A stretch of DNA of 64,000 bases from the NCBI RefSeq assembly GCF_044324875.1, contig NZ_CP172185.1. The stretch is one strand, 5' to 3'. The DNA comes from Escherichia coli (GTDB lineage Bacteria > Pseudomonadota > Gammaproteobacteria > Enterobacterales > Enterobacteriaceae). The notes below the pieces were generated by a model. The model saw only the letters and a program-made list of their open reading frames with translations. It was not told the origin of the DNA and ran no database searches. Of this stretch, positions 6,374 to 64,000 are shown piece after piece (the first letter of the stretch is position 1; each line of letters starts with the position of its first letter). The position numbers and the translations under genes were made by a program.

Positions 6374-8078
6374 AAAACTGGCTGCGATTAATTCGCTATC
6401 ACAGTTGCGCGGAATGTTAGAAATGTTGGGAGATTTGGGGATAGACATCAGTGACGATTTACAAAAAATTACTTATGCAATTAATTCCATCGAATCTGAT
6501 GTTCTGCGTATTGCTTTGTTGGGGGCGTTTTCTGATGGCAAAACCAGCGTTATCGCTGCATGGATGGGTAAGATAATGGATGATATGAATATTTCCATGG
6601 ATGAGTCCTCTGATCGGTTGAGTATTTACAAACCGGAAGGTCTGCCAGACCAGTGTGAAATTGTTGATACACCCGGGCTGTTTGGTGATAAAGAGCGTGA
6701 GGTGGACGGGAAACAGGTGATGTATGAAGACCTGACCAAACGCTATATATCTGAAGCTCATCTGATTTTATACGTGGTTGATGCCACTAACCCGCTAAAG
6801 GAGAGCCACAACGACATCGTAAAATGGGTATTGCGCGATTTGAATAAACTCTCTTCAACCATTTTTGTTATCAATAAAATGGATGAAGTGACTGATCTGA
6901 CAGAGCAGGCGCTGTTTGACGAGCAGGCAGCAATTAAAAAGGCGAATCTTAAAGGTAAATTGCAGCGTGCAGCTGCTCTTACCGCTCAGGAGTGTGATCA
7001 GCTAAATATCGTCTGCATTGCTTCAAACCCAAACGGTCGTGGCTTAACGTACTGGTTTGATAAACCAGAACATTATGAAAGTCGTTCGCGCATTAACGAT
7101 CTTAAAAATGCTGCCACCGACATACTGAAAACTAATGTGCCAGAGGTATTGTTAGCGAAAACAGGTATGGACGTGGTGAAAGATATTGTCATTCAGCGTG
7201 CCACCCAGGCAAGCAGACAGTTCGATGAACTGAATCTGTTTGTTGAGAAGAATGACGAGGACATGTGTCGTTTTCAGAACGACATTAAGCAAAGTCGCAT
7301 TGAGGTTAAACGGCTGGCCGGAGAGTTATTTGAAGAGCTGAACCTGATGGAAAAAAAGCTGATGAGTCAACTGCGTTCACTCGATCTGGACGATATCCGC
7401 CCGTTTATGGACGATGAGCTGGGATATACAGAAGATGGGGTTGGCTTTAAGCTTCATCTGCGCATTGAGCAGTCAGTTCATCGTTTTTTCGAACAGTCGA
7501 AAGCGGTCTCGCAACGCTTATCTGATGATATCACTTGTCAGTTGAGCTCCAGCGAGAGCTTTCTAAGTGGCTTAGGCGAAGGCGCATTTCGTTCTTTAGG
7601 CGGGACCTTTAAGGGAGTGTCGAAAATTAGTCCGGCGACGCTCAAAACGACTATTTTGACCGCACGCGATACGATTGGCAAACTAACGGGATATACCTAT
7701 AAATTTAAACCCTGGGAGGCCACGAAACTGGCCGGAAGCATTTCCAAATGGGCTGGTCCTGTGGGTGCAGTGTTTACGATTGGTTCTGATCTATGGGATG
7801 CCTATAAAGCACACGAGCGGGAGCAGGAGCTGAAAAAAGTAAAAGAATCGCTGGCGAAAATCATTAAAGAGCAGTTTGAATATATCTATGACGTACTGAG
7901 TTCTGATGAGAAAATATTCGCCTTTTTTGCACCGCAGATCCAAAAAATGGAGCAGGTTGTTACTGAGCTGGCAGAGAAAAGCCAGGCTATTCGCGACAAC
8001 CGGCAGAAACTGAGCATTATTCAGACGCAGCTTGCACAACTAATGGTTCCAGCCACAGAAAACCATACTGTCAGATAG
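6345..8078 (+). CDS. leoA: LeoA-like bacterial dynamin-like GTPase
   Basis: 577 aa. G1 GAFSDGKTS, G3 DTPGLFG, G4 INKMD. The length matches the LeoA I remember from ETEC H10407. Confidence 0.8.
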   Translation: MEQFKQFSIEKLAAINSLSQLRGMLEMLGDLGIDISDDLQKITYAINSIESDVLRIALLGAFSDGKTSVIAAWMGKIMDDMNISMDESSDRLSIYKPEGLPDQCEIVDTPGLFGDKEREVDGKQVMYEDLTKRYISEAHLILYVVDATNPLKESHNDIVKWVLRDLNKLSSTIFVINKMDEVTDLTEQALFDEQAAIKKANLKGKLQRAAALTAQECDQLNIVCIASNPNGRGLTYWFDKPEHYESRSRINDLKNAATDILKTNVPEVLLAKTGMDVVKDIVIQRATQASRQFDELNLFVEKNDEDMCRFQNDIKQSRIEVKRLAGELFEELNLMEKKLMSQLRSLDLDDIRPFMDDELGYTEDGVGFKLHLRIEQSVHRFFEQSKAVSQRLSDDITCQLSSSESFLSGLGEGAFRSLGGTFKGVSKISPATLKTTILTARDTIGKLTGYTYKFKPWEATKLAGSISKWAGPVGAVFTIGSDLWDAYKAHEREQELKKVKESLAKIIKEQFEYIYDVLSSDEKIFAFFAPQIQKMEQVVTELAEKSQAIRDNRQKLSIIQTQLAQLMVPATENHTVR

Positions 8079-52403: not shown

Positions 52404-53923
52404 CCACGAATAACTATCTGGAACACTTTCTGACCCTGCTGGGCTGGCTGGTGAATAATGGCCTGTGGGATCTGCTGACGGGGACGGGGCTGTTTGCCCT
52501 GCCACTGGCCTTCAGGGTTATCGGGATCTGGCTGAAAGTGCGGGAAGAGGGGGCGGATGAGGGAAATAAAGGGATGCTCTCACTGCCCCGCATTGAGCAT
52601 GCCCTGTATGGTGCATTTTTTGTGATGGTGGCCTGTTGTGTGCCGCTGGTACAGGTGACGCTGGACACGCTGAAATTTGATCGCAGCCGTGCCCAGACCT
52701 GCGGTGTGTGGACACCGAAAGCACCCGGTGATACCGGGTACAGCGGGGTGATCAGCAGCCTGGGTGACAGGACAGCGGCCGCCCCGGTGTGGTGGGTGGT
52801 GGTGCATAAACTCTCCAAAGGTGTGACGCAGGCTGCTGTGGCTTCCATTCCCTGCCGGCCGGATATACGGCAACTGCGTTTTGAGGTGCAGCGGACATTC
52901 ATTGCGAACCGGGCGCTGGCCGACGAGCTGCAGGATTTCACCAACGACTGTTACTCGCTGGCGCTATATCAGTGGAAGCAGCGTGACCAGGGGATGACGA
53001 AGGACAGGAAGCTGCTTTCGGATATCAGCTGGATTGGCAGCAGTACGTTCATGCAGGGTGACTACGGAACACTGCAGTCGAAAATGCCACGTGCGGCATT
53101 CCCGTGGAATAGCGCCCGTGACAGCGGCCGTCCGGATACGGGACGGGGTGGTTATCCCACATGCCGTGAATGGTGGAGTGACAGTAGTGTCGGGCTGAAG
53201 AAGCGGGTGACAGGGGAAGTCGATGAAGGACTGTGGTTGCGTATTTCGGCGGCAATGAAAATGCTGGGGAACGCGCAGGCGAACTACCAGGAGGAAATCA
53301 TCAAACGTCTGGTGAGTCCGGCGAACCTGACCCTGTCACAGGGTGGTGAGGTGTACCGCGGCTATGGCGGTAATGCAGATATGACGGCGGCGAATGCGGT
53401 CACGCGTGCAGCAGGCACGGCGGGGTCTGCCGTTGCGAGTCTGGCAGCGTTTCCGGCGTTTGATGCGATGCGGCAGGCGCTGCCGATGGTGCAGAGTATT
53501 CTGCTGATGGCGGTGTATATCATGCTTCCGTTGATTCTGGCGTTTGCGGCGTATGAATTCAGCACGCTGATCACACTGACGTTTGTGGTGTTTGCGCTGA
53601 ACTTCCTGACGTTCTGGTGGGAGCTGGCGCGGTGGCTTGACAGCTGGATGCTGACGGCCTTGTACAGTTCGGACACGCATTCCCGAGTGAACATGATGGG
53701 GCTGCAGAACACGTCGGATGATATCATCATGAATTTTGTGATGGGCACGATGTTTATTATATTGCCAGCGGTGTGGCTTGGGGCTTTATCCTGGGCGGGT
53801 ATTAGCGCAGGTGTTGCTATTGCTAATGCAGCCAGAGATGGAACAAGTGCAGCACATCAAGCAGCTTCAAAGGCAGGAGATCTTGTTGGGAAAGTAGGAA
53901 ATTCTTTAGGTAAAAATCAATAA
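52400..53923 (+). CDS. TraG N-terminal-domain conjugal transfer membrane protein
   Basis: GTGA coupling. Polytopic. 507 aa. Last gene of the high-GC T4SS block. Confidence 0.7.
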   Translation: MTTNNYLEHFLTLLGWLVNNGLWDLLTGTGLFALPLAFRVIGIWLKVREEGADEGNKGMLSLPRIEHALYGAFFVMVACCVPLVQVTLDTLKFDRSRAQTCGVWTPKAPGDTGYSGVISSLGDRTAAAPVWWVVVHKLSKGVTQAAVASIPCRPDIRQLRFEVQRTFIANRALADELQDFTNDCYSLALYQWKQRDQGMTKDRKLLSDISWIGSSTFMQGDYGTLQSKMPRAAFPWNSARDSGRPDTGRGGYPTCREWWSDSSVGLKKRVTGEVDEGLWLRISAAMKMLGNAQANYQEEIIKRLVSPANLTLSQGGEVYRGYGGNADMTAANAVTRAAGTAGSAVASLAAFPAFDAMRQALPMVQSILLMAVYIMLPLILAFAAYEFSTLITLTFVVFALNFLTFWWELARWLDSWMLTALYSSDTHSRVNMMGLQNTSDDIIMNFVMGTMFIILPAVWLGALSWAGISAGVAIANAARDGTSAAHQAASKAGDLVGKVGNSLGKNQ

Positions 53924-53970
53924 ATGGAAAAGAAAATAGCGTTTGTCGGAGTACAAACGCTATTAAAATT

Positions 53971-54177
53971 TTATTTTTGTTCTTCCCATTGTTGATATTC
54001 CCAATAGGGGCGAGAGTCTAAAAAGGCAGGTAATTCATCATTTTTTTCTGGTGAATTTGTCAATTTTATGGAATTTGACAACTCAACAGCCAAAAGTTTT
54101 TTCAGCAGAGAGCTGAAAGTCCATGGGGTATCAGATGTTTTGCAACTCCACATTGCTTTTTCTGTTTCATTGTTCAT
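53971..54177 (-). CDS. Small hypothetical protein
   Basis: 68 aa. Low-GC cargo region. Confidence 0.35.
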   Translation of the reverse strand: MNNETEKAMWSCKTSDTPWTFSSLLKKLLAVELSNSIKLTNSPEKNDELPAFLDSRPYWEYQQWEEQK

Positions 54178-54474
54178 CTCGTGCCTCCTGTAAGTGGATA
54201 ATCATCCTGGTACTATCATACGTGTTGTATGATAAATATTCAATGCTTGCAAATCCAGGTGTAATTGTCTGATTTTACTCTTCTTGCTGTACAGCCTGTG
54301 ATGTGGGCCAGGACGTGGCACTGCATGTCACAATAGCTCCAGGAGCTTCAGTCTCAGCCCTGCTGAACATTGTGTGATTAATTTTTAAAAATGCGAAAAG
54401 AATAATCTCTCTTTTTAGTCGTCCGGCTATGCCTTAATTCTCCCTGAGTCAAAACCTGTATCAGGAGAAGCTGA

Positions 54475-55047
54475 ATGAAAATATCAAAACTGGTTGTTAT
54501 GGCTACAGTATGTTCCACGTTGAGTGCATGCTCTGTGGAAGAGATGGCTGCTGTGAACAAGAAAATCAGTGACGGTGCATTTGCTGTGACGAAAGCGCTC
54601 AACGGGGGAACGGGCTACGCGGATAATGGTATGCCGATCCTTAACAAGCAATTGCCGCCGGAGCAGGATAAACGCGAAAATATTATTGATGTCCCTGTTG
54701 ATGTGGATACCGCAGCAGGCCGACTGAAACGCTATTACAAGTTTTACTCAAATGATGAGGTGAATGCGATACGCAATAACGGCACAACTGACGGAAAATG
54801 GCAGGCAAGTGCGATTATTGACAATGGACATATCTGGGATGCGATGCCGGGCAGTTACTACAAAATGGGAGGAAACTGGCGTAAAAGCAGCTTTGATGAT
54901 CACCTGACGATTGAGGTGGAAAAGAACGGTAAGGGAAGCCGGGTCTATATCACCTATGCTTCAGCTTCTCAGGCGCATTTGCAGGCAAGTTCTCTTGAGC
55001 CTCTGTTTAAGCGAGTGAAGGATGTGGCTGAAGGAAAGGTTCGTTGA
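54475..55047 (+). CDS. Lipoprotein of unknown function
   Basis: Lipobox TLSAC. AGGAGAAG RBS. Confidence 0.6.
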   Translation: MKISKLVVMATVCSTLSACSVEEMAAVNKKISDGAFAVTKALNGGTGYADNGMPILNKQLPPEQDKRENIIDVPVDVDTAAGRLKRYYKFYSNDEVNAIRNNGTTDGKWQASAIIDNGHIWDAMPGSYYKMGGNWRKSSFDDHLTIEVEKNGKGSRVYITYASASQAHLQASSLEPLFKRVKDVAEGKVR

Positions 55048-55270
55048 TGAGCACATCACGGGCAAGCCCTTATGGCTAAAGGAGAGGGAGATTGCCCGTG
55101 GCGGCCCACTTTTTTAATCATTTTTTTACCATGTTGTCCAGTATTTTTACATAAGTGAAACATCTGGTGTTGTTTTCTGTTCATCGTGCTGGAAGTTACA
55201 GGGCTTGTAATTGAACGGGGAGAGATGTAATTTACGTGCGCAAAAATTTTACTCAAGGGGGAGAAAACCG

Positions 55271-55534
55271 ATGAAACCGAATATCCATCCTGAATACCGT
55301 ACTGTGGTGTTCCACGATACCAGTATCGATGAGTACTATAAAATTGGTTCGACCATCAAGACTGAACGTGTGATTGAGCTTGATGGTGTCACCTATCCGT
55401 ACGTAACTATTGACGTTTCCTCTAAGTCGCATCCTTTCTACACCGGCAAACTGAGAACTGTTGCTTCAGAAGGTAACGTGGCGCGCTTTAACCAGCGTTT
55501 CGGGCGTTTTGTTGACACCAAAAAAGGTGCCTGA
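55271..55534 (+). CDS. ykgM: Ribosomal protein L31 type B (zinc-independent paralogue)
   Basis: [31 protein letters not shown]...[28 protein letters not shown] lacks the CxxC zinc motif. Near-identical to the E. coli YkgM I remember. Confidence 0.9.
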
Positions 55535-55580
55535 CCAGAAATTGATCACAGGCGCGCTTGATACGCAAAAGTATTATTTG
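55469..55580 (+). repeat. Direct repeat 1 (last 21 codons of ykgM plus 46 bp downstream)
   Basis: Aligns with 58864-58975; 101/112 identical by hand count. Confidence 0.9.
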
Positions 55581-55640
55581 TATTATTTCTGATATTTTAT
55601 TTCAAAGGCGGTATTTACCGCCTTAATTAGTTTTATCCGT

Positions 55641-56813
55641 TTATTTATTTCCTTTTGAACGATTATGCGTAACGCAAAGCATTTCGCAATTATCAGGCTT
55701 ACTTTCACCCCCCTTACTCCATGCGGAAACATGGTCGGCTTCCATTTCTTTCAAAGCCCAGATTTTTGTTTTATTGGCATTATCTGAACTGGCGCAAAGG
55801 GGGCAGTTTGAAATACCTTGTTGCTCCGCTTTATCTGTTTGCCTTTTGTAGGCTTGTTTTTTAATTTTTTCATCAAAAAAGCGAATGTTTAATAAACGTT
55901 TATCAGATTGACCACCTAACACATATTCCCAGATGCCTTTAATGTTTTTTACACTATCATCCTGATATAATTTATTGATTTGCGTGGCTAATTCACCTGG
56001 ATTGTATGGTTTGTCTTTATAGGTTTCGTATAAACGCCCCCATTCCAGTCCGCACATTTCTTTTTTTACCTCGGTAAATGTGGTGTTAACCCAGTCAATC
56101 ACGCTATTGAAATAGGTTTTTAATTCCTTGATATTGTCATCATTACGATGGGCATTCATGTATTCGCTGATATTTCCTTTACTGACCCAGTTTAACGCAC
56201 ATTCTAAAATTTCCTGGCGTTTAACATTACCTTTGATGTAAGCACTCCATTTTTGCACATTTGAATTAGCAGAATTACTGAATTCTGCTTTTGCCAGTGT
56301 AACAAATTTGCCCGAATACACCGCATTCAATAATTCTTGTTCATTTAAAGGGACGCCAGTAATATTAATCGTTTTAAACCATTCTTTAATTTCGCTTTCT
56401 GTACCCTTACATTTGTAAATCAGCAAAGTGGTTTGTTTGATTTTCTCTTGTTGGTCTTGCGGTAAACTATGGAAATAGTATGGCGTGCCTTTATCATCTA
56501 TAATGGCGAATTTTCCGGTAACAAACCGCCCAATACTGGTAATGCGCTGCTGACCATCCAGTACTTCAAATGTATCTTCTGTATCTTTGTCAGGTTGATT
56601 AAAATAAATCAAACCGAGCGGATAACCTTTTAATACTGACTGGATAACTGCCACATCTTTCTTACCGTCTGCATAAATATAATTGCGTTGATATTCGGGC
56701 TGAATGGTAAGCTTTCCTGATAAACCAAACAAGCCTTTTCCCTCCAGTTCATTATAAACAAATCCATCGCACAATTGTTCAACGGTGATTGATGTATCTA
56801 ATTGTGTTTTCAT
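55641..56813 (-). CDS. DUF262 (ParB-like nuclease N-terminus, DGQQR) protein with a C-terminal HNH nuclease
   Basis: [14 protein letters not shown]-terminal CPLC...[11 protein letters not shown]...N...[12 protein letters not shown]. Confidence 0.8.
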
Positions 56814-56828
56814 TTTTCACTTTTCCTT

Positions 56829-57983
56829 TTATTTATTTTGTGGATTGATGTGTTTAATAAGAATGCGTCCATAAGTACGTTTGCCGTTAATAACTGTACA
56901 CCCACCCCTATCTTCAGAATGTTGAGAATAATTTAAAATCTCCAGTATCTCTTCGGGAGTTGATGCTCGTGTATTACCACTTGCTTGCCAAATAATTTCA
57001 AACTGTTCAGGACAATATTTATCCAAAAAGCTAATTGGCACGCCCATAACTCCTGCATAATCGCTAGGAATACCGTTAGTTCTGGGCACTTCAATAGCAT
57101 CATAATTGTCATATGCCTGATAAGCGTTAGGGTCATTGATAATTTGTTTGTTGTATTTTAAATTATCCGCCATAGACATTAGCTGTAAAGATTGATGCCG
57201 TCTGCCGTGTTCAATATTGGTAAACCAACAAGAGTTACCCAAACGAGTATAATCACCTATATATCCTAGACGCTCCGCTTTTTTCTTATCAGCTTCCCTC
57301 ACATCAGCACCTTGTGGTACAGCAAAAACCATATCATTACCATTCCCAGTAGCACCCAACCAAATTTTATTTCCTTTGATAAGTGGAAAAATCTCTTTAT
57401 AAGTAATAGCATTCATATTACCGATAACGGCAAACTGCTTTTTACCTTCCATAATCCATGCCATAAATTCGCGAAACAGCGAAAAAGGCGGATTGGTGAT
57501 AATTATGTCGCTTTCATCGCGTAGAGCTTTGATTTCATCACTACGAAAATCGCCATCACCCTGCAGGTATTGCCATTTAATATCTTTAAAATCAATTACA
57601 CCATCGTGATTACTGTCTTCGGTTAGCGTGTAAATTTTGCCATGTTTCTGGCTTTTATCACTGTCGTATTGTTCACTTTCGCTTTCAAATAATGATGGCT
57701 GATAAGCTGTGTTTAACTGTTTGGATTGATGAGCGTAGCTGGTACTGATGAGCTTCTTTAATCCAAGTCGTTCAAAGTTTTGTGCAAAATAAAGTGTGAA
57801 ATTGCTCCACTCGGGGTCATCACATGGTAAGAGAATGGTTTTGCCACGAAATACGTCTTTATTGAAATCAAGATAGGCATTCATCTCTTTTTCAATATCA
57901 TGGTATTGGGTGTAAAATTCGTCATTTTTGGCTTTTTTTGCAGCAGAAAGATTACTGTTTTTGGCAGAAATATTCTTTGACAT
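56829..57983 (-). CDS. N6-adenine DNA methyltransferase, EcoRI-methylase-like family
   Basis: NDEFYTQ N-terminus, ILLPCDD, catalytic IIITNPPFSLF. GGAGG RBS. Confidence 0.75.
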   Translation of the reverse strand: MSKNISAKNSNLSAAKKAKNDEFYTQYHDIEKEMNAYLDFNKDVFRGKTILLPCDDPEWSNFTLYFAQNFERLGLKKLISTSYAHQSKQLNTAYQPSLFESESEQYDSDKSQKHGKIYTLTEDSNHDGVIDFKDIKWQYLQGDGDFRSDEIKALRDESDIIITNPPFSLFREFMAWIMEGKKQFAVIGNMNAITYKEIFPLIKGNKIWLGATGNGNDMVFAVPQGADVREADKKKAERLGYIGDYTRLGNSCWFTNIEHGRRHQSLQLMSMADNLKYNKQIINDPNAYQAYDNYDAIEVPRTNGIPSDYAGVMGVPISFLDKYCPEQFEIIWQASGNTRASTPEEILEILNYSQHSEDRGGCTVINGKRTYGRILIKHINPQNK

Positions 57984-58033
57984 TTCAAACCTCCAAAACA
58001 GTATTGAAGGTTTGAAAAAACGGGGTTACATTA

Positions 58034-58152
58034 TGCTTGTTGCTTGTTGCTTGTTGCTTGTTGCTTGTTGCTTGTTGCTTGTTGCTTGTTGCTTGTTGCT
58101 TGTTGCTTGTTGCTTGTTGCTTGTTGCTTGTTGCTTGTTGCTTGTTGCTTGT
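58034..58152. repeat. Perfect heptanucleotide microsatellite (TGCTTGT)x17
   Basis: 119 bp = 17 x 7, no interruptions. Lies 51 bp upstream of the methyltransferase ATG and 60 bp downstream of the ccdB-like stop (both genes on the minus strand). Confidence 0.98.
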
Positions 58153-58211
58153 ATTAGCATTGGATTTTCCCTTTTACTTGTCAAGTATTTTCTTTTGGAT
58201 TCTGAAGTTTT

Positions 58212-58538
58212 TCACGTATTCGTAACGATGGCATCAAGTGCAGCGATAATTTCATTTCTGGATGAAGAAATATTACATATAAAATCTTTGCTGTTTATTT
58301 TTTTTGCATCCAGGAACGTGAGCGCCGGGGTGAACACATAGAAATCCGATGTCTCTATTTTAACTAATGGCGTTATCCTTTTCTTTTTAAGCTCAATATC
58401 ATTTTTTGATACCAGAGGCACGACTATCCTTGTGGTTAAATCGTCAAAATAATCATTCTGGAGAATAAGGTAGAACGGCCAGAGTTTATTCGTTCTGACC
58501 GATGGATTGCGGTATACATCAAATTGCTTTGGCATCAC
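58212..58538 (-). CDS. ccdB: CcdB-family toxin
   Basis: FDVYRN...PFYLILQNDYFDDLTTRIVVPL resembles the CcdB N-terminal pattern. The start overlaps the antitoxin stop. Confidence 0.6.
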   Translation of the reverse strand: MMPKQFDVYRNPSVRTNKLWPFYLILQNDYFDDLTTRIVVPLVSKNDIELKKKRITPLVKIETSDFYVFTPALTFLDAKKINSKDFICNISSSRNEIIAALDAIVTNT

Positions 58539-58783
58539 AGACTCCCAAAGAAATCGTCATCCGTCAACATTCCTGCTTTTGCCATAAATTTATTCATAGT
58601 GTGCATATCCTGTTTTTCTTCTTCCCGCTCTACAGTTTTGGCCTCGATAGCCTGTGCCAGAAGGTTATCCAGTGTTGCCGACAGGTTCATGTCCATACTC
58701 CGGGCTTTATCAACCAGTGAGGCCGTCAGGTAAACGTTGGTGCTTCTTTTGTTGCTGTTACGAGTGGTGGCAACTGTATTCAT
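58535..58783 (-). CDS. ccdA: CcdA-family antitoxin
   Basis: AGGAG 9 nt upstream of ATG 58783 (MNTVATTRNSNKRSTNVYLTASLVDKARSMDMNLSATLDNLL...). The longer track ORF to 58879 runs into the ykgM-derived repeat and is rejected. Confidence 0.6.
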   Translation of the reverse strand: MNTVATTRNSNKRSTNVYLTASLVDKARSMDMNLSATLDNLLAQAIEAKTVEREEEKQDMHTMNKFMAKAGMLTDDDFFGSL

Positions 58784-58863
58784 TATGCTTGCTCCTGTGC
58801 GCAGATGTATGCGCATAATTATGATGGGGGAAGGATAAACAATCAAGTGTGATCCTTCCGTTA

Positions 58864-58975
58864 GAAGGTAATGTGGCATGCTTTAACCAGCGTTTCGGGT
58901 GTTTTGTTGACACCAAAAAAGGTGCCTGATCAGAAATCGATCACAGGCGCTATTGATATGCAAAAGTATTGCTTG
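58864..58975 (+). repeat. Direct repeat 2 (displaced ykgM 3' fragment encoding [21 protein letters not shown])
   Basis: Aligns with 55469-55580. Confidence 0.9.
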
Positions 58976-59189
58976 AGTGTCTGAGGTCGGTTATTTTATG
59001 TTTCACAAGTAAAGAAGCATTTAAAAAGAAACTCACAGTCCATATTCCTTCATCCCCGGTTACGGGGATTTTTTTTAGCTGCTGTCTGGTGAGGAGGAAA
59101 GGGGCTGTGTCGGGCAGGGCGCTGTAAGGCTGCGATTGTCCGGGTGATGTCTGAACATGCGGTATGTTTGTGTTAAACAAGGGGGGAGT

Positions 59190-59378
59190 ATGTGGATACT
59201 GATTTTCTGGCTTTCAACACCATATTCAGTGTCATCCAGCGTTGCCAGACAACCAACGCTTGCTGTTCATTCTCAGGAGTTCGCCAGCGAAAGGGCCTGC
59301 AGGAATGCGCTGGCTGAGATGAAGAAGGTGAATGTCGGAGAACTGACCCTGAGGGGTATCTGTGTCTCAAAAGAATAG
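59190..59378 (+). CDS. Small protein with a hydrophobic N-terminus
   Basis: GGGGGGAG upstream of ATG 59190. 62 aa. Confidence 0.35.
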   Translation: MWILIFWLSTPYSVSSSVARQPTLAVHSQEFASERACRNALAEMKKVNVGELTLRGICVSKE

Positions 59379-59430
59379 TGGGGGAGAGGGAGCGAACCAG
59401 GCAGTTTTATCAGGAATGTGATTCCGGCGA

Positions 59431-59490
59431 ACCCGCTCGCCGCAGTCCGGCGACCGAACGTCAGTGAGTAAGCGGACGAGGAAGCGGAAT
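59431..59490. other. Sequence resembling the ColE1/pBR322 region that holds a PriA-type primosome assembly site
   Basis: CCCGCTCGCCGCAGTCCGGCGACCGAACGTCAGTGAGTAAGCGGACGAGGAAGCGGAATG compared with the remembered pUC/pBR322 ACCGCTCGCCGCAGCCGAACGACCGAGCGCAGCGAGTCAGTGAGCGAGGAAGCGGAAGAG. Confidence 0.3.
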
Positions 59491-59709
59491 GTCACCGTTC
59501 TTTCATAATGCACGAACGCTGTGTGGTTACATGGGGAAAGGATGAATGTCACCATTCTGTATCTGTTTCTGAAAAACAGTTCCGCTTGTTACCCTGTAAT
59601 TGCCGACTGGCGTTAGCATACAGAGGCGGTATTATCCCCTGTGATATCAGGGGTTATTTTGTTTTGCTCTGTAAGACCTGGCCAGCTATTATGCTGGCCT
59701 TTTTGTGGT

Positions 59710-59868
59710 TTATTGTTCGCAGTCCAGCATTGCAAATAATTTTCGTTTCTGTTCCTTCACATACTCAACATCAACAGTACAATCCAGATAACTTAACTCA
59801 TCTTCTGTCCAGGCATTGATGGATTCTTTTATTCGGTGTGTCACATCAGGTGTGAGTATGTCGCGCAT
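59710..59868 (-). CDS. Possible 52-aa ORF overlapping the end of the upstream 61-aa ORF
   Basis: MRDILTPDVTHRIKESINAWTEDELSYLDCTVDVEYVKEQKRKLFAMLDCEQ. Below the track cutoff. 28-nt overlap with 59841-60026. Confidence 0.3.
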   Translation of the reverse strand: MRDILTPDVTHRIKESINAWTEDELSYLDCTVDVEYVKEQKRKLFAMLDCEQ

Positions 59869-60026
59869 TTCTCAATGGTATCCCGGCTTATTTCTCCTCG
59901 TGGAGATTCAAGCAGAGGAATTACGGCCTGATCTCCCGGAGGGAGTATAAGACGTAATTCATATTTAAGCGTTTCGTTGAGTAAACTACAGAAAGCACTG
60001 TATTTCTCTTTCCGGGTACTGTTCAT
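59841..60026 (-). CDS. Small hypothetical protein (61 aa)
   Basis: ORF track entry. First gene of a possible two-gene pair. Confidence 0.35.
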   Translation of the reverse strand: MNSTRKEKYSAFCSLLNETLKYELRLILPPGDQAVIPLLESPRGEISRDTIEKCATYSHLM

Positions 60027-60121
60027 CGTTTTATTCCTTCTAATTACTGTGCATGGGGTAAGATTAAAGTGTTTTGCAAAAAATGTACAAGTTGTTTTTA
60101 TCCTGATTTAATTTGATGTCA

Positions 60122-60775
60122 TCACTTTTCTTTTGTGTCAGTGGGTACTGCATTGTTTATTAGCCACGGCAATTGTTGATTATCCTGTATTTTTCGGATG
60201 TAGTTATCAATAATATCTTTTGTTTCATCAATATTATTATAAAAAGATTCAAGTGTGCATATAAAATCATCATTTAATGTAGGTAGCAGGATTATGTTTT
60301 TTACTGTGAACCGGATATGACGATTACTCAGTGTTTTTAAATAAAGTTTCTTTCCAATAACAGGATTTACATTGAAAATATTGTAACAGATTTCCACTGT
60401 GTTTTCTGAAGGTGCGTATAATACGTATACCGGATATTTTTTATGAAGTTTTATCAAGCAACTTATAAAATCTAAGTAATTTGTTTGTTTTGCTTTTTCT
60501 CGCATCTTATTTACGTGCTGCGAAAAGAAATATGCTTTTGTAAATATAAAAAGAAAAATAAACGCAGTGTTTAACAGAAATGTGATGACAATTGTTGTAA
60601 ATAACCATTTGCCTGAACCTGTATTAAAAATATGGGATGAAAGATACCCACCTGTCAGCAACAAAAATATAAATAATAATGACTGCATTTTTTCCTGGTT
60701 GTTTATTGATGATTTCAGACACAGAAATATAACAACACATGAAAAGGTCCAGAAAAATATAACAGCAAAATCCAT
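60122..60775 (-). CDS. Membrane protein (4 TM helices) with a soluble C-terminal domain, unknown function
   Basis: AAGGTG 6 nt upstream of ATG 60775. Very low GC. Confidence 0.55.
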   Translation of the reverse strand: MDFAVIFFWTFSCVVIFLCLKSSINNQEKMQSLLFIFLLLTGGYLSSHIFNTGSGKWLFTTIVITFLLNTAFIFLFIFTKAYFFSQHVNKMREKAKQTNYLDFISCLIKLHKKYPVYVLYAPSENTVEICYNIFNVNPVIGKKLYLKTLSNRHIRFTVKNIILLPTLNDDFICTLESFYNNIDETKDIIDNYIRKIQDNQQLPWLINNAVPTDTKEK

Positions 60776-60940
60776 ATTATCACCTTTTGTCTGACAGTTC
60801 ATTTGTTGATGCTATCACGATATTCGCGATGCGGTAAATATATCAATATGTTGGTTTATTTGTGTAATACATTATTTCCCATACGCCATAAATCAGTCTG
60901 TTGACGATAGCTTTTTTCTTTTGTTATTCTGTACCCGCTT

Positions 60941-61190
60941 TAACTGTCGCTTCGGCGACCACCAATGTTCCATGAGGCCTGTGAGGAACGCCTTCGGGTG
61001 GCCCACGTCGCTCCGGCGACCACCAATGCTCCATCTGACCTGTGAGGAGCGCCTTCGGGTGGTCAGTTTTACACCTCCGTAGCCTGAAAGGAGCTGTGCG
61101 TGCTGATGGGATATGTTCCCGGAAGTACGGGTAAATCTGCACACCTTTGCGAGCAGATGTCACCACGGTTTACGTGATGATGAAGGCATT
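60941..61190 (+). ncRNA. STAXI-like tandem-pseudoknot element, copy 2 (two units plus tail)
   Basis: Near-identical to 26921-27240 minus one unit. Same orientation. Confidence 0.55.
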
Positions 61191-61921
61191 CCGGATTTCG
61201 TCCGGTACTTTTACTTTTTCTCAGCAGACTTTCATAAAAATGCTTTATGGATCTGCTTCTTAAGATGTTTTCTGGCTTTCCGCATAAGCTTCTTATGACT
61301 GTGCGCACGGCATAAGGCCATTTGAAATTTGGCCGCTTGCGTGTGTACGTGGATTTTGAAGCCTTGCGGCGTCACTTGAGTGCGACCGTAGGGAACACCA
61401 AGTGACGCCACAACAATCTGCCCTGAAAGCAGCATCACGTAAGGCCAGCCAGAAAATCGTCGCTCGTGACCAGCGTTCTGATGACCGTTTCGTCTGTCTG
61501 ACAGCGTCTTTCAGTAACGTGTCCATGCCTTTCCGGCGCGTCCGTTTTCACGGACGGCCACGCCGGAATGTCTTTTTAAACTTCATAATACATGAGAGGT
61601 AAGTGTATTAACTTGTTGAAAAAAGGAATAAATATGAAAAATCGTTCTGAAGTCGGAAGGCGTCATCGTAAGATGACGGGGAGTAAAAAATCGCCCTGGT
61701 GCACAGGTAGCGAACTCCTGTAAAAACTCAACATGTGCAAGCTCTGCTACATCGACATCAAACGAGCCAGGAAGGCGAGCAACCGCGTTACAGAGCCGTC
61801 CGTGATGACGAAAAACTAACAATATCAACGATCTGGTCTGTTTATCGGAAGGGCATCTCATGCAGTTGAACTTTCAGAACGGATGGTTTTCTGCATCTTT
61901 TTTAACAGGGGGATTGACGTT

Positions 61922-62839
61922 ATGTCCCGTAAATCGTCACGTTCCAAAGTTGAAGTCTTTCGCAAGTCATTCATCTCACTTGCCCGTGATTGTGGTGGCA
62001 GCTACGCAACAACCGCTGACAGAATGCGAATTGCCAGATACTTTTTGAATTATTTGCAAGTAAACGGTATCAAACTTCGTCAGACGGGCAGTATTAAGAC
62101 GAGGCATATTTCTGGTTATCTTCTCAGCAGGAAAGAGCAGGGGATCTCTCACCGCACAATTCAGAATGAACGGGCAGTTATGCGCGCAATTCTAGAGAAA
62201 GATGGTCGCCTTAAAATAGCGGATCCGTCCAATCCTTTATTGAGCAATGAAGCTCTTGGACTCAGGGATACATGCCGTGATGGTAAAAAGATACCACTCT
62301 CACAGGATGAGTTTAATAAAGCCTTCAGTAAGGTTGAAAAAAATAATCCCGGTGTTGCTGCAGTAATGCAAATTTCTTATGTTCTTGGACTGAGGACAAA
62401 AGAAGCTGTTCAGTCTTGTAAATCAGTTAACTCGTGGCTACGTGAACTTGATTCAGGGCATGATTCTCTTCTCGTTGTTTTTGGGACGAAAGGTGGAAGG
62501 CCCAGAGATACAACGATCATTAATCGTGATGCAGTGAAACATGCGCTCATTTATGCAAAAAACATTATGGATAAACAGAATGGTAAACTTATCGATTGCC
62601 CCAATATTAAACAGGCTATAAACGTATATCGTTACCATGTAAGAAAAGCTGGTTTATCTGGAGTGAAGGCACCACATAGTATGCGTTATCATTTTTCGCA
62701 GGAAGCAAGGCAGTTTTATCGAAAAAGTGGATATGGAGATAAAGAAATTTACGCAAGGGTTTCCATGGACCTTGGTCATGGTGACGGAAGAGGGCGTTAT
62801 GTAAAACAGGTCTACTTTAAAGGCGATGATGAGAGCTGA
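61922..62839 (+). CDS. Tyrosine recombinase (plasmid/ICE integrase-domain family)
   Basis: GLRTKEA (Arg), HSMRYHF (HxxR), GRGRYVKQVY (Tyr). SAM-like N-terminal domain. Confidence 0.7.
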   Translation: MSRKSSRSKVEVFRKSFISLARDCGGSYATTADRMRIARYFLNYLQVNGIKLRQTGSIKTRHISGYLLSRKEQGISHRTIQNERAVMRAILEKDGRLKIADPSNPLLSNEALGLRDTCRDGKKIPLSQDEFNKAFSKVEKNNPGVAAVMQISYVLGLRTKEAVQSCKSVNSWLRELDSGHDSLLVVFGTKGGRPRDTTIINRDAVKHALIYAKNIMDKQNGKLIDCPNIKQAINVYRYHVRKAGLSGVKAPHSMRYHFSQEARQFYRKSGYGDKEIYARVSMDLGHGDGRGRYVKQVYFKGDDES

Positions 62840-62842
62840 TAT

Positions 62843-63583
62843 TTAAAATGAATCCGGAGGATATGTGTTTTTCGCGAACTTATTAATTTCTGTAATAAGA
62901 ATTTCTGATGCACGATTACACATGCTCTCATTAAAGTATCCTATATGGCATTCATGGATGCGGCAATTTAGTTTTCTGGATAGCCATCTGTTTGCCTCGT
63001 TACGGGATATATTTGTTTTTTGCTGATAGCTGTCAAAAAGTTTACGCACTTGTGCTCTGAGTATTCTCAAATTTTCTTTAGCTGGAGTACCTAATGGTCT
63101 CCCTGAATTTTTATGACATCCAACCCATGCATTGCATGGGCTGCAAATCCAGTAATATTTGTTTTCTGTAGTGGGTGTCGTGGAAAATGGCATAAGTGCA
63201 CCTTTTCTGAGTTGTGCCTTATTACCACAGTAAGTGCAGATTACAATTGGACGAACATCTGCAATATTCAGTGCTGCATAAGTAAGACGTTCATTTTTCA
63301 TCATGTTTCGTTTTCCACAGTCAGTGAGAATATGCTTTATTGTGTCTAATTCTTCTCGGAGTATTTTTGAACGGACGCCAGTTCGATAACGCTGTTGAAA
63401 GTAGAGCTCAATATGGCGTAGTTTTATACTATTTATTGATTTTATCTGTATATTGGATTCTTTAAGAAATGAAGCAAATCTTCTGGCTCTCCCCATATAT
63501 ACCAGTATGTCTTCTGGTGTCGGGGCGCATGCTTTAGCTATTTTGATTAGCTCATCTTTTAATTTTTTGTATTTCGATTTCAT
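62843..63583 (-). CDS. Integrase-N-terminal-like domain fused to a DUF3268-type 4-Cys zinc ribbon
   Basis: The N-terminus RARRFASFLKESNIQIKSINSIKLRHIELYF parallels RIARYFLNYLQVNGIKLRQTGSIKTRHISGYL of the neighbouring recombinase. CTYCGN...YWICSPCNAWVGCH...PLGTPA. Confidence 0.6.
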   Translation of the reverse strand: MKSKYKKLKDELIKIAKACAPTPEDILVYMGRARRFASFLKESNIQIKSINSIKLRHIELYFQQRYRTGVRSKILREELDTIKHILTDCGKRNMMKNERLTYAALNIADVRPIVICTYCGNKAQLRKGALMPFSTTPTTENKYYWICSPCNAWVGCHKNSGRPLGTPAKENLRILRAQVRKLFDSYQQKTNISRNEANRWLSRKLNCRIHECHIGYFNESMCNRASEILITEINKFAKNTYPPDSF

Positions 63584-63732
63584 CCTGATATCTCTCTTTA
63601 AGGTTCATTAAGAGTGTTACTGAGTAAAAAAATATCAAATTAAGTATTTATTGTCATTCAGTTGTAGCTTCTCAGCCGCTCCACGACAATAACAACTTGA
63701 AGTTTTATGCAGTTTGTGCTTACAATTTAAAC

Positions 63733-63990
63733 GCTAACTTGTCGCTTCGGCGACCACCAATGTTCCATGTGGCCTGTGAGGAACGCCTTCGGGTGGCCCA
63801 CGTCGCTCCGGCGACCACCAATGCTTCATCTGACCTGTGAGGAGCGCCTTCGGGTGGTCAGTTTTACACCTCCTGAGCCTGAAAGGAGCTGTGCGTGCTG
63901 AAGGGATATGTTCCCGGAAGTACGGGCAAATCTGCGCACCTTTGAGAGCAGATGTCACTGCGGTTTTCCGTGATGATGAAGGCTTTTTTA
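63733..63990 (+). ncRNA. STAXI-like tandem-pseudoknot element, copy 3 (two units plus tail)
   Basis: Near-identical to copy 1 and copy 2. Same orientation. Close to the window edge. Confidence 0.55.
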
Positions 63991-64000
63991 TCACTGTATG

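Follow-up and report, generated by a model that had tools for sequence, protein, structure and literature searches.

The DNA analysed here, a 64,000-nt stretch of Escherichia coli contig NZ_CP172185.1 (assembly GCF_044324875.1; hereafter the window), carries a small islet of ccdAB and restriction–modification (R-M) genes that lies just behind ykgM, the gene for type B ribosomal protein L31 (L31B), and is bounded by long direct repeats that include the 3′ end of that gene. The ykgM gene itself is intact (55271–55534, plus strand; Pfam Ribosomal_L31, 1e-24; NCBIfam type B L31, 121.6 bits at a cut-off of 86 bits). Its last 21 codons, the stop codon and 46 nt downstream make up the left copy of a 112-bp duplication (55469–55580), while the right copy (58864–58975) holds a ykgM 3′ fragment (codons 67–87, reading GAA GGT AAT GTG GCA TGC ... 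GGT GCC TGA, with two Arg-to-Cys changes) followed by 46 nt. The copies are identical at 101 of 112 positions, leaving 11 mismatches, and a repeat search of the 64-kb window extends them to 120 nt at 88% identity (55461–55580 and 58856–58975). Their longest block without a mismatch spans 29 nt (55506–55534 and 58901–58929) and terminates on the ykgM stop codon; it is the candidate crossover interval if a single crossover made the repeats. A 28-nt query taken from this block matches two sites only in the window, where 100 shuffles give an expectation of 0, and in E. coli genomes the 29-nt core is confined to ykgM copies, rather than being a multicopy genomic repeat or the end of an insertion sequence (IS).

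Between the repeats lies an inserted unit of 3.28 kb (55581–58863), whose right end is exact at 58863/58864 and whose left end falls within 55581–55590. Pfam matches place on its minus strand, in this order, ccdA (58535–58786), ccdB (58212–58538), a heptamer microsatellite (58035–58152; AACAAGC on the coding strand), a gene for an EcoRI-family N6-adenine methyltransferase (56829–57983) and a gene for a DUF262–HNH nuclease (55641–56813). At the left end of the insert, a GC-rich hairpin with a T-rich tail (55605–55624, plus strand), terminator-like and shared with the copies found in Shiga toxin-producing E. coli (STEC; see below), now stands directly downstream of both ykgM and the nuclease gene. 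By Pfam and the layout of open reading frames (ORFs), no recombinase or transposase is encoded among the four genes, and since these occupy the whole interval no space is left for one. The repeat search of the window found no terminal inverted repeats at the insert ends.

Much of this had been proposed in a sequence-only reading of the same DNA, and as a description of the structure that reading is confirmed. The count of 101/112 for the 112-bp repeats was obtained again, translation agrees that the second copy still encodes the last 21 L31B codons, Pfam agrees on the gene content, order and strand, no integrase lies between the repeats, and the cargo is indeed an addiction module plus a restriction-like pair, here CcdAB and the R-M pair. 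The heptamer tract, given as 17 copies, consists of 16 perfect units plus a partial one. The low GC content holds for the insert (36–38%), although the immediate flanks are themselves just 43–50%, the conjugation genes being at 58–60%.

The surroundings are those of an integrative and conjugative element (ICE) of the MPF-G type (TraG_N/TraU, TIGR03756/03757), and the islet sits in its low-GC cargo region; ykgM is here a gene of that cargo region and does not represent the chromosomal ykgMO locus. Empty sites, on which the sequence-only reading had counted, do exist: about 50 complete E. coli genomes run straight from ykgM into the sequence that begins at 58976 in the window. Empty and filled ICEs encode an identical ykgM (L31B) protein, and the empty sites (L002, L003 and L097–L105 in our numbering of loci) contain a single copy of the 112-bp sequence. 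The match to the window is very close in three of these empty ICEs (L098, L102, L105), which show 0–2 mismatches per kb across 8 kb leftward and again from ~61480 rightward. Comparison with the empty sites places the start of the foreign DNA 46 nt past the stop codon of a complete ykgM. The insertion had been assigned to the ykgM 3′ end, and the repeats do cover that end, but the gene is intact and the insert lies downstream of it. Relative to true empty sites, the alignments support the view that the islet is a discrete insertion.

The copies at this site go back to one event. In all 19 contexts examined that have intact junctions, junctions and repeats are 100% identical, which indicates a single historical insertion; carriers include CP158308 (strain CM2) and AP026454 (strain TUM1886). 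The exact nuclease protein occurs in 1,479 blocks of the assembly collection; in all 10 distinct contexts listed, ykgM adjoins the nuclease gene, and in nine of them both junctions and both repeats are 100% identical to those of the window. The tenth (L095, GCA_030142865.1) is rearranged, without ccdAB and the right repeat; at ~6650–6830 of that locus a run of ACGCA pentamers and an N precede the heptamer tract, with IS1 copies near, and the locus may represent either a rearrangement or an assembly problem. Other cargos at the site, which had been envisaged earlier, did not appear, as the 10 contexts of the exact L31B protein are either empty or hold this cassette. We also reconstructed the ‘attP’ (phage-type attachment site) that a site-specific element would have brought, by joining the left part of the right repeat to the right part of the left repeat; across 5,426 E. 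coli genomes and 72,556 plasmids this query returned the same loci plus ordinary ykgM copies at ≤88% identity, and nothing else. No further duplication of the ykgM 3′ end exists in the 5,426 E. coli genomes.

Signs of excision were equally absent where we looked for them. A 188-aa protein encoded in the right flank, specific to the diverged patch described below, lies beside the cassette in nine of nine contexts (24 contigs read); as it is found only beside the cassette, no excised site is seen. The pattern of a circle or tandem junction, which the sequence-only reading had suggested might turn up, gave 0 matches in metagenome contigs, in which the right-end pattern matched one contig, of the same context.

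How the cassette reached its present backbones can be read from the single-nucleotide polymorphisms (SNPs) around it. SNP maps against L098, L102 and L105 delimit a diverged patch that always travels with the insert (54828–60860, the right limit lying between 60747 and ~61480). Its SNPs are found in no empty site and amount to 1–2% on the left, ~3% on the right and up to 8% just right of the repeat; bases typical of this flank type are 54828 A, 54886 A and 55055–55056 AT on the left, and 58999 T, 59020 T and 59026 A on the right. The cassette therefore came into this backbone inside the ~6-kb patch, through homologous recombination with a diverged ICE lineage in which both repeats were already present. 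Two carriers (L093 and L119) show a different mosaic, with an L003-type patch at 53719–54372, which shows that such exchanges are common in the region. In one genome (GCA_027274645.1), a filled and an empty ICE region (L100 and L101) lie 1.7 Mb from each other on the same 5.8-Mb contig, a situation in which the two alleles could naturally recombine. Within the right flank, a 105-aa minus-strand gene (59710–60026) that is intact in empty-site ICEs is split into ORFs of 52 and 61 aa by a 1-nt deletion at ~59867; the frameshift goes with the cassette-linked flank.

The base differences between the two repeat copies bear on how the duplication arose. Three derived bases (G at 55504/58899, T at 55528/58923 and C at 55531/58926) are common to both copies and absent from all empty sites, which points to descent of both copies from one target sequence. 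The right copy has four unique transitions within its positions 1–37, two of which are the Arg-to-Cys changes, fitting, as expected, the decay of a dead gene fragment. In the left copy, six changes fall in positions 67–112 (55535–55580) and are seen neither in the other copy nor in empty sites, and its left part is identical to empty-site alleles. The L003-type empty site matches positions 68–112 of the right copy, and the next 23 nt, without a difference, with the flank just past them 8% diverged; this right half may be a short conversion tract. The overall layout is compatible with a single crossover between the target and a diverged copy, and also with duplication in situ followed by decay and a short conversion tract; the crossover-like pattern is statistically weak, at six versus one changes in the non-coding part, and does not separate the two readings.

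One filled locus, L106 (GCA_027275365.1; 9199–9330 and 12553–12680), carries both 112-bp repeats in their empty-site form, and its flanks (equivalent to 55055–55557 and 58864–60747 of the window) are of the empty-site type as well. Its cassette differs from that of the window by three homopolymer indels only. The locus could be explained by double gene conversion, by re-insertion or by a chimeric consensus. We set re-insertion aside, since homopolymer indels are typical of noisy long-read assembly and the sister genome from the same project has both a filled and an empty ICE (L100 and L101), and regard L106 as the probable chimeric consensus of two ICE copies.

The ends of the unit can be defined independently from a second copy. 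STEC islands, which are related ICE remnants, contain the four genes at 96–97% identity, flanked by fragments of IS66 tnpB and of ureB; another ykgM allele follows ~5.4 kb further downstream in the same orientation. These STEC contexts are all of one lineage, and their ykgM is just 83–87% identical to either window copy. Homology between the window and the STEC copy breaks off precisely where the right repeat begins (58863/58864), and on the other side sets in at ~55579–55590, 0–9 nt from the end of the left repeat. At most 9 bases between insert and repeats are left unexplained, and the unrelated STEC context shows the unit with identical ends. None of the 112-bp sequence is present in the STEC copies, nor is any flanking direct repeat of at least 14 nt found around them. 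Among clusters of the cassette's proteins, two only are close, at 100% and 96% (the latter STEC); the next, at 80%, is on short contigs.

The two enzymes of the islet are encoded by genes 15 nt apart. The methyltransferase is matched by Pfam PF13651 (1.6e-131) and PADLOC MTase_II (7.2e-96), and the nuclease, in which Pfam recognizes DUF262 (GmrSD_N) and HNH domains, by PADLOC REase_II at full length (3.1e-86). We predict a Type II R-M system, in which a separate methyltransferase and endonuclease form a conserved pair: the two genes adjoin each other in 76 of 80 homologous loci from many phyla, with 65–76% protein identity. The N-terminal DUF262/GmrSD_N domain of the nuclease (76.8 bits) is shared with the GmrSD Type IV nucleases, but its C-terminus is HNH (PF01844) and not DUF1524, and whereas those enzymes act alone on modified DNA, this gene is paired with a methyltransferase gene in those 76 loci and its product matches a Type II restriction endonuclease in PADLOC over its full length. 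A Type IV reading was rejected on the HNH domain and the methyltransferase pairing. The pair keeps 65–76% identity across Bacteroidota, Chloroflexota, candidate-phyla-radiation bacteria, Pasteurellaceae and one archaeal metagenome-assembled genome (MAG) (L007–L086); conservation of this degree is unusual in a restriction enzyme and suggests that the pair has spread widely by horizontal transfer. The nearest relatives outside E. coli, at 72–78%, belong to Pasteurellaceae (Haemophilus, Mannheimia), Moraxella and Neisseriaceae (Neisseria). Neither the solved structures nor NCBIfam yielded a named relative of the two proteins, and no characterised homologue was found.

The other two genes overlap by 4 nt and, being adjacent with full-length family matches, qualify as a predicted CcdAB type II toxin–antitoxin system (Pfam CcdA, 9.1e-16, 58.4 bits; Pfam CcdB, 1.5e-27, 96.2 bits). 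A promoter-like site lies by ccdA (58846–58818, minus strand, from sequence). The ccdAB part (58211–58848) is 86–89% identical at the nucleotide level to ccdAB of Klebsiella, Enterobacter and Citrobacter plasmids, and those plasmid contexts contain no ykgM and no R-M genes. Conversely, none of the homologous R-M loci carries ccdAB. A plasmid-like ccdAB together with R-M homologues that lack it marks the islet as a composite, with an addiction module fused upstream of an imported R-M pair.

Upstream of the methyltransferase gene, the heptamer tract is the most variable part of the cassette. The number of units ranges from 1 to 20 across 29 otherwise near-identical loci, and eleven tract lengths occur among ~16 assemblies with identical flanks; variable tract length of this kind is a feature of contingency loci, and a heptamer tract of 1–20 units is unusual in E. 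coli. A 44-codon leader ORF, MLIQ(ATSNKQQ)n..., starts at 58160 and runs through the tract (58026–58160, minus strand). It is followed by a 14-bp RNA hairpin (57984–58016, minus strand; an inverted repeat with a predicted fold of −17.8 kcal/mol, z = −2.5) that would pair with the GGAGG ribosome-binding site of the methyltransferase. In two of the three frames the leader ORF ends at a UAA right after the tract; the 16 units of the window give this early-stop state, with the UAA at 58026–58028 ahead of the hairpin. When the unit number is 2 mod 3, the ORF passes through the hairpin to a UGA one nucleotide before the methyltransferase AUG; isolates with such tracts include GCA_027274645 (20 units) and GCA_050096165 (11 units). 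Gene callers have annotated read-through ORFs of exactly this kind in L001, L088 and L121. The STEC copies L001 and L004, with 11 and 8 units, are both in the read-through frame, and in one STEC sublineage (L005, L006, L109–L112) the tract is down to 1 unit, with the leader ORF locked in the early-stop frame; in L006, IS1 splits the nuclease gene as well.

Distant homologues of the methyltransferase carry heptamer tracts of other sequence and support this architecture. In the Alysiella crassa homologue (L007:1–120) the tract is (AACACGC)8, and hairpin and stops are laid out as here; in a Methylotenera MAG (L083:6780–6940), (GCGAACC)17 falls within the methyltransferase ORF, at its 5′ end. A (GACA)13 tract opens a Treponema MAG contig (L052), ~50–100 nt from a partial methyltransferase match. 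Taken together, the leader architecture suggests phase-variable expression of a Type II R-M system by translational coupling. As in phasevarions and in pil1 of S. gallolyticus (PMC3894217), the length of a simple-sequence repeat differs between near-identical strains. Phasevarions, however, are mostly Type III or Type I, with the repeats inside mod or hsd genes, whereas here the system would be Type II and the heptamer stands in a leader ORF of its own. The nearest precedent that we found is pil1, with its leader-peptide repeat switch (PMC3894217): there too the repeat lies in a short upstream ORF whose frame decides the opening of a downstream RNA hairpin, but that hairpin is a terminator, whereas the predicted hairpin here would hide a ribosome-binding site, and the host is E. 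coli. If true, a leader-ORF switch of a Type II R-M pair would be an uncommon form of phase variation and would raise the question of how cells survive a restriction enzyme that is switched back on.

Further along the ICE, 3 kb from the islet, lies an Integrase_1-family gene (61883–62839; PF12835, 1.3e-51), which is present in all empty-site ICEs too and whose product scores just 19 bits against the NCBIfam XerC model (cut-off 335). Two segments that are highly variable between otherwise identical ICEs (60862–61480 and 63671–64000) contain near-duplicate ORFs (60924–61166 and 63734–63994), both ending ...PERRGPPEGVPHRPHGTLVVAEAT..., which suggests that a repeated element stands on either side of the integrase-like gene pair (61883–63583). 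The ICE family carries its own gene for type B L31, a zinc-independent ribosomal protein, without the partner ykgO, in at least two alleles with just 83% nucleotide identity (window, L002, L003, L005). A search of the literature on the repeat unit or on ICE-borne ykgM found nothing relevant.

We favor, at a probability of about one half, a recombinase-independent insertion with long target duplication. A Type II R-M pair fused to a plasmid-type ccdAB would have entered the ICE cargo region once, as a unit, 46 nt downstream of the ykgM stop codon, with duplication of 112 bp of the target. The insertion itself is thought to have followed DNA breakage and repair, by staggered breaks or template switching, a step that is inferred, not shown. 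Afterwards the unit would have become passive cargo, kept by its two addiction functions and inherited with the ICE, and its movement between ICE backbones would have been by ordinary homologous recombination of the ~6-kb patch. In the meantime the repeat copies would have drifted to 90% identity, with the ykgM fragment decaying as a pseudogene piece and short gene-conversion tracts becoming visible, and expression of the R-M pair would probably have been switched by the heptamer tract. Several observations sit less easily with this account. For R-M insertion with long duplications in general, no biochemical mechanism has yet been shown; in the STEC context the signature is missing, with no direct repeat of at least 14 nt around the unit; the empty-type repeats of L106 could reflect a re-insertion; and the repeat halves facing the cassette are the diverged ones (positions 1–37 of the right copy and 67–112 of the left), with the distal halves native, as a crossover between attP and attB or between homologous sequences predicts.

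That last pattern is what keeps alive the best of the alternatives, which we nevertheless judge unlikely: a circular DNA carrying the cassette and a diverged copy of the ykgM 3′ end would have integrated, in the manner of Campbell, by one crossover in the 29-nt block, dependent on RecA or on ICE-encoded recombination and not site-specific. The reciprocal SNP layout, with foreign-looking cassette-side halves and native distal halves, agrees with it, and the identical block provides a crossover interval; about 29 nt is close to the minimum for efficient homologous pairing, and homologous recombination is demonstrably active in the region. Yet no circular or plasmid source with a ykgM-like segment turned up in the plasmids or E. 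coli genomes searched, the cassette has no replication function, and the STEC copy has the cassette without any ykgM-like segment. The three shared derived bases would moreover require the foreign copy to be a close paralogue of the very same target.

A route without any insertion seems to us slightly less likely still. Here the cassette would first have stood upstream of ykgM, as it does in STEC-type ICEs at a distance of ~5.4 kb and in the same orientation; a deletion would have joined its right end to ykgM codon 67, and a later illegitimate join would have added a complete ykgM with its 46 nt downstream from another ICE lineage. The cargo region is mosaic and scrambled by ISs, and a 10% divergence between the copies would be natural had two lineages contributed. 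However, two independent illegitimate joins would be needed to leave a clean duplication without extra DNA, the STEC ykgM is just 83–87% identical to either copy, and the three shared derived bases point to one lineage, while the comparison with empty sites is that of a simple insertion.

The interpretation in the sequence-only reading is partly supported as to structure, but the mechanism put forward there fares worse. It held that the element supplies a new gene end and inserts by a mechanism that is unknown or acts in trans, and the evidence does not support such a mechanism as one still in use; in its concrete form, a non-autonomous element with an attP mimicking the ykgM 3′ end would have been integrated by a recombinase acting in trans, either the product of the 61883–62839 gene or the ICE integrase. 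Repeats at a gene 3′ end, the existence of empty sites and an integrase-domain gene 3 kb away (PF12835, 1.3e-51) all fit, and an imperfect inverted repeat (TTTTGTTG ACAC CAAAAAA), read from sequence, lies within the identical core. The integrase-like gene is nevertheless present in all empty-site ICEs, and yet we see one event, one cargo and no excision product; no donor-type empty site occurs among the contexts of the 188-aa protein and no circle or tandem junction among the metagenome contigs; the STEC copy lacks an att-like half site; and the nearby predicted integrase is remote from XerC, at its 19 bits. We consider this explanation improbable. Equally poor odds attach to the proposal, hypothesised by Kobayashi's group, of a self-mobilising ‘virus-like’ R-M element, in which breaks made by the unit's own DUF262–HNH nuclease during ON/OFF switching of the heptamer-controlled operon would drive insertion with long target duplication, the 112-bp repeats would permit amplification or release, and the ykgM site and the STEC island would represent two jumps.

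Returning to recombinase-independent insertion, the wider interest of the islet lies in a question about mechanism that has stood since 2000, namely how R-M genes insert with long duplications and without a recombinase. The event seen here is old, but near-isogenic empty sites and a second copy with identical ends make this a convenient E. coli/ICE system in which to test the mechanism. It also illustrates that defence and addiction genes can pass from one ICE backbone to another through homologous recombination and not by mobility of their own. The value of the islet is mainly that of an E. coli example of an unsolved mode of insertion, combined with a hypervariable leader repeat.

Among known mobile-element classes, several could be set aside on structure. 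A transposon or IS unit was rejected for want of terminal inverted repeats in the insert and for a duplication of 112 bp rather than a short one; an integron cassette, because the boundaries read GTTAGAA and CTGATAT, with no GTTRRRY core site or attC-like imperfect palindrome, and four genes are enclosed; and a XerCD/dif module, because inspection by eye revealed no dif-like 28-mer. Greater likeness exists to cis-mobilizable elements (CIMEs) and to islands at the 3′ ends of genes or tRNAs, which likewise show gene-3′-end repeats, an intact gene with a displaced 3′ fragment on the far side, and no internal integrase. CIMEs, however, end in att sites recognised by a known helper integrase and occupy the site where that helper itself integrates, often in tandem with it, whereas the site here is internal to an ICE, with one event, no sign of excision and a second copy without the repeat. 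Against a site-specific element, whether a CIME or an integrative and mobilizable element, speak the absence of an internal recombinase, identical junctions in 19 contexts, no excised site among the contexts of the 188-aa protein, and an STEC copy without the 112-bp sequence. The hotspots HS1–HS5 of SXT/R391 are ICE positions with variable DNA, and resemble the present site in their defence and addiction cargo, their fixed intergenic position in the backbone, the lack of a recombinase of their own and homologous exchange between ICEs. The ICE family is a different one here (TraG_N/TraU, TIGR03756/03757 type), and to our knowledge SXT hotspot insertions have not been described as flanked by 100-bp target duplications.

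The closest match is R-M insertion with long target duplication, a class first described in H. pylori in 2000 (Nobusato et al. 2000; PMC2853133). Furuta, Abe & Kobayashi (2010, PMC2853133) define it by R and M genes together in an insert of <20 kb, a duplication of >30 bp, the absence of further mobile elements and a relative whose site is empty. They found it for all R-M types, with repeats of 46–423 bp; those of the H. influenzae cases are 46 bp long and reach over the 3′ ends of genes (PMC2853133). The class involves neither recombinase nor transposase, and its authors suggest a part for DNA double-strand breakage (PMC2853133). Like its members, the islet is a short low-GC R + M insert with target-derived repeats of >30 bp and an empty site, without integrase or transposase; its repeats overlap a gene 3′ end, as they may in the class, and its nearest relatives come from the naturally competent Haemophilus and Neisseria. 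It departs from them in also carrying ccdAB and a hypervariable microsatellite, in a target within an ICE and not the chromosome, in repeats that are 90% identical versus 93–100% in most published cases, and in its host, as that survey found the pattern mostly in naturally competent species and not in E. coli (PMC2853133). Given that R and M genes, a 3.28-kb insert, 112-bp repeats, no other mobility gene and empty sites are all found together, the islet is best placed as a clean further example of this known class, and not as a new kind of mobile element.

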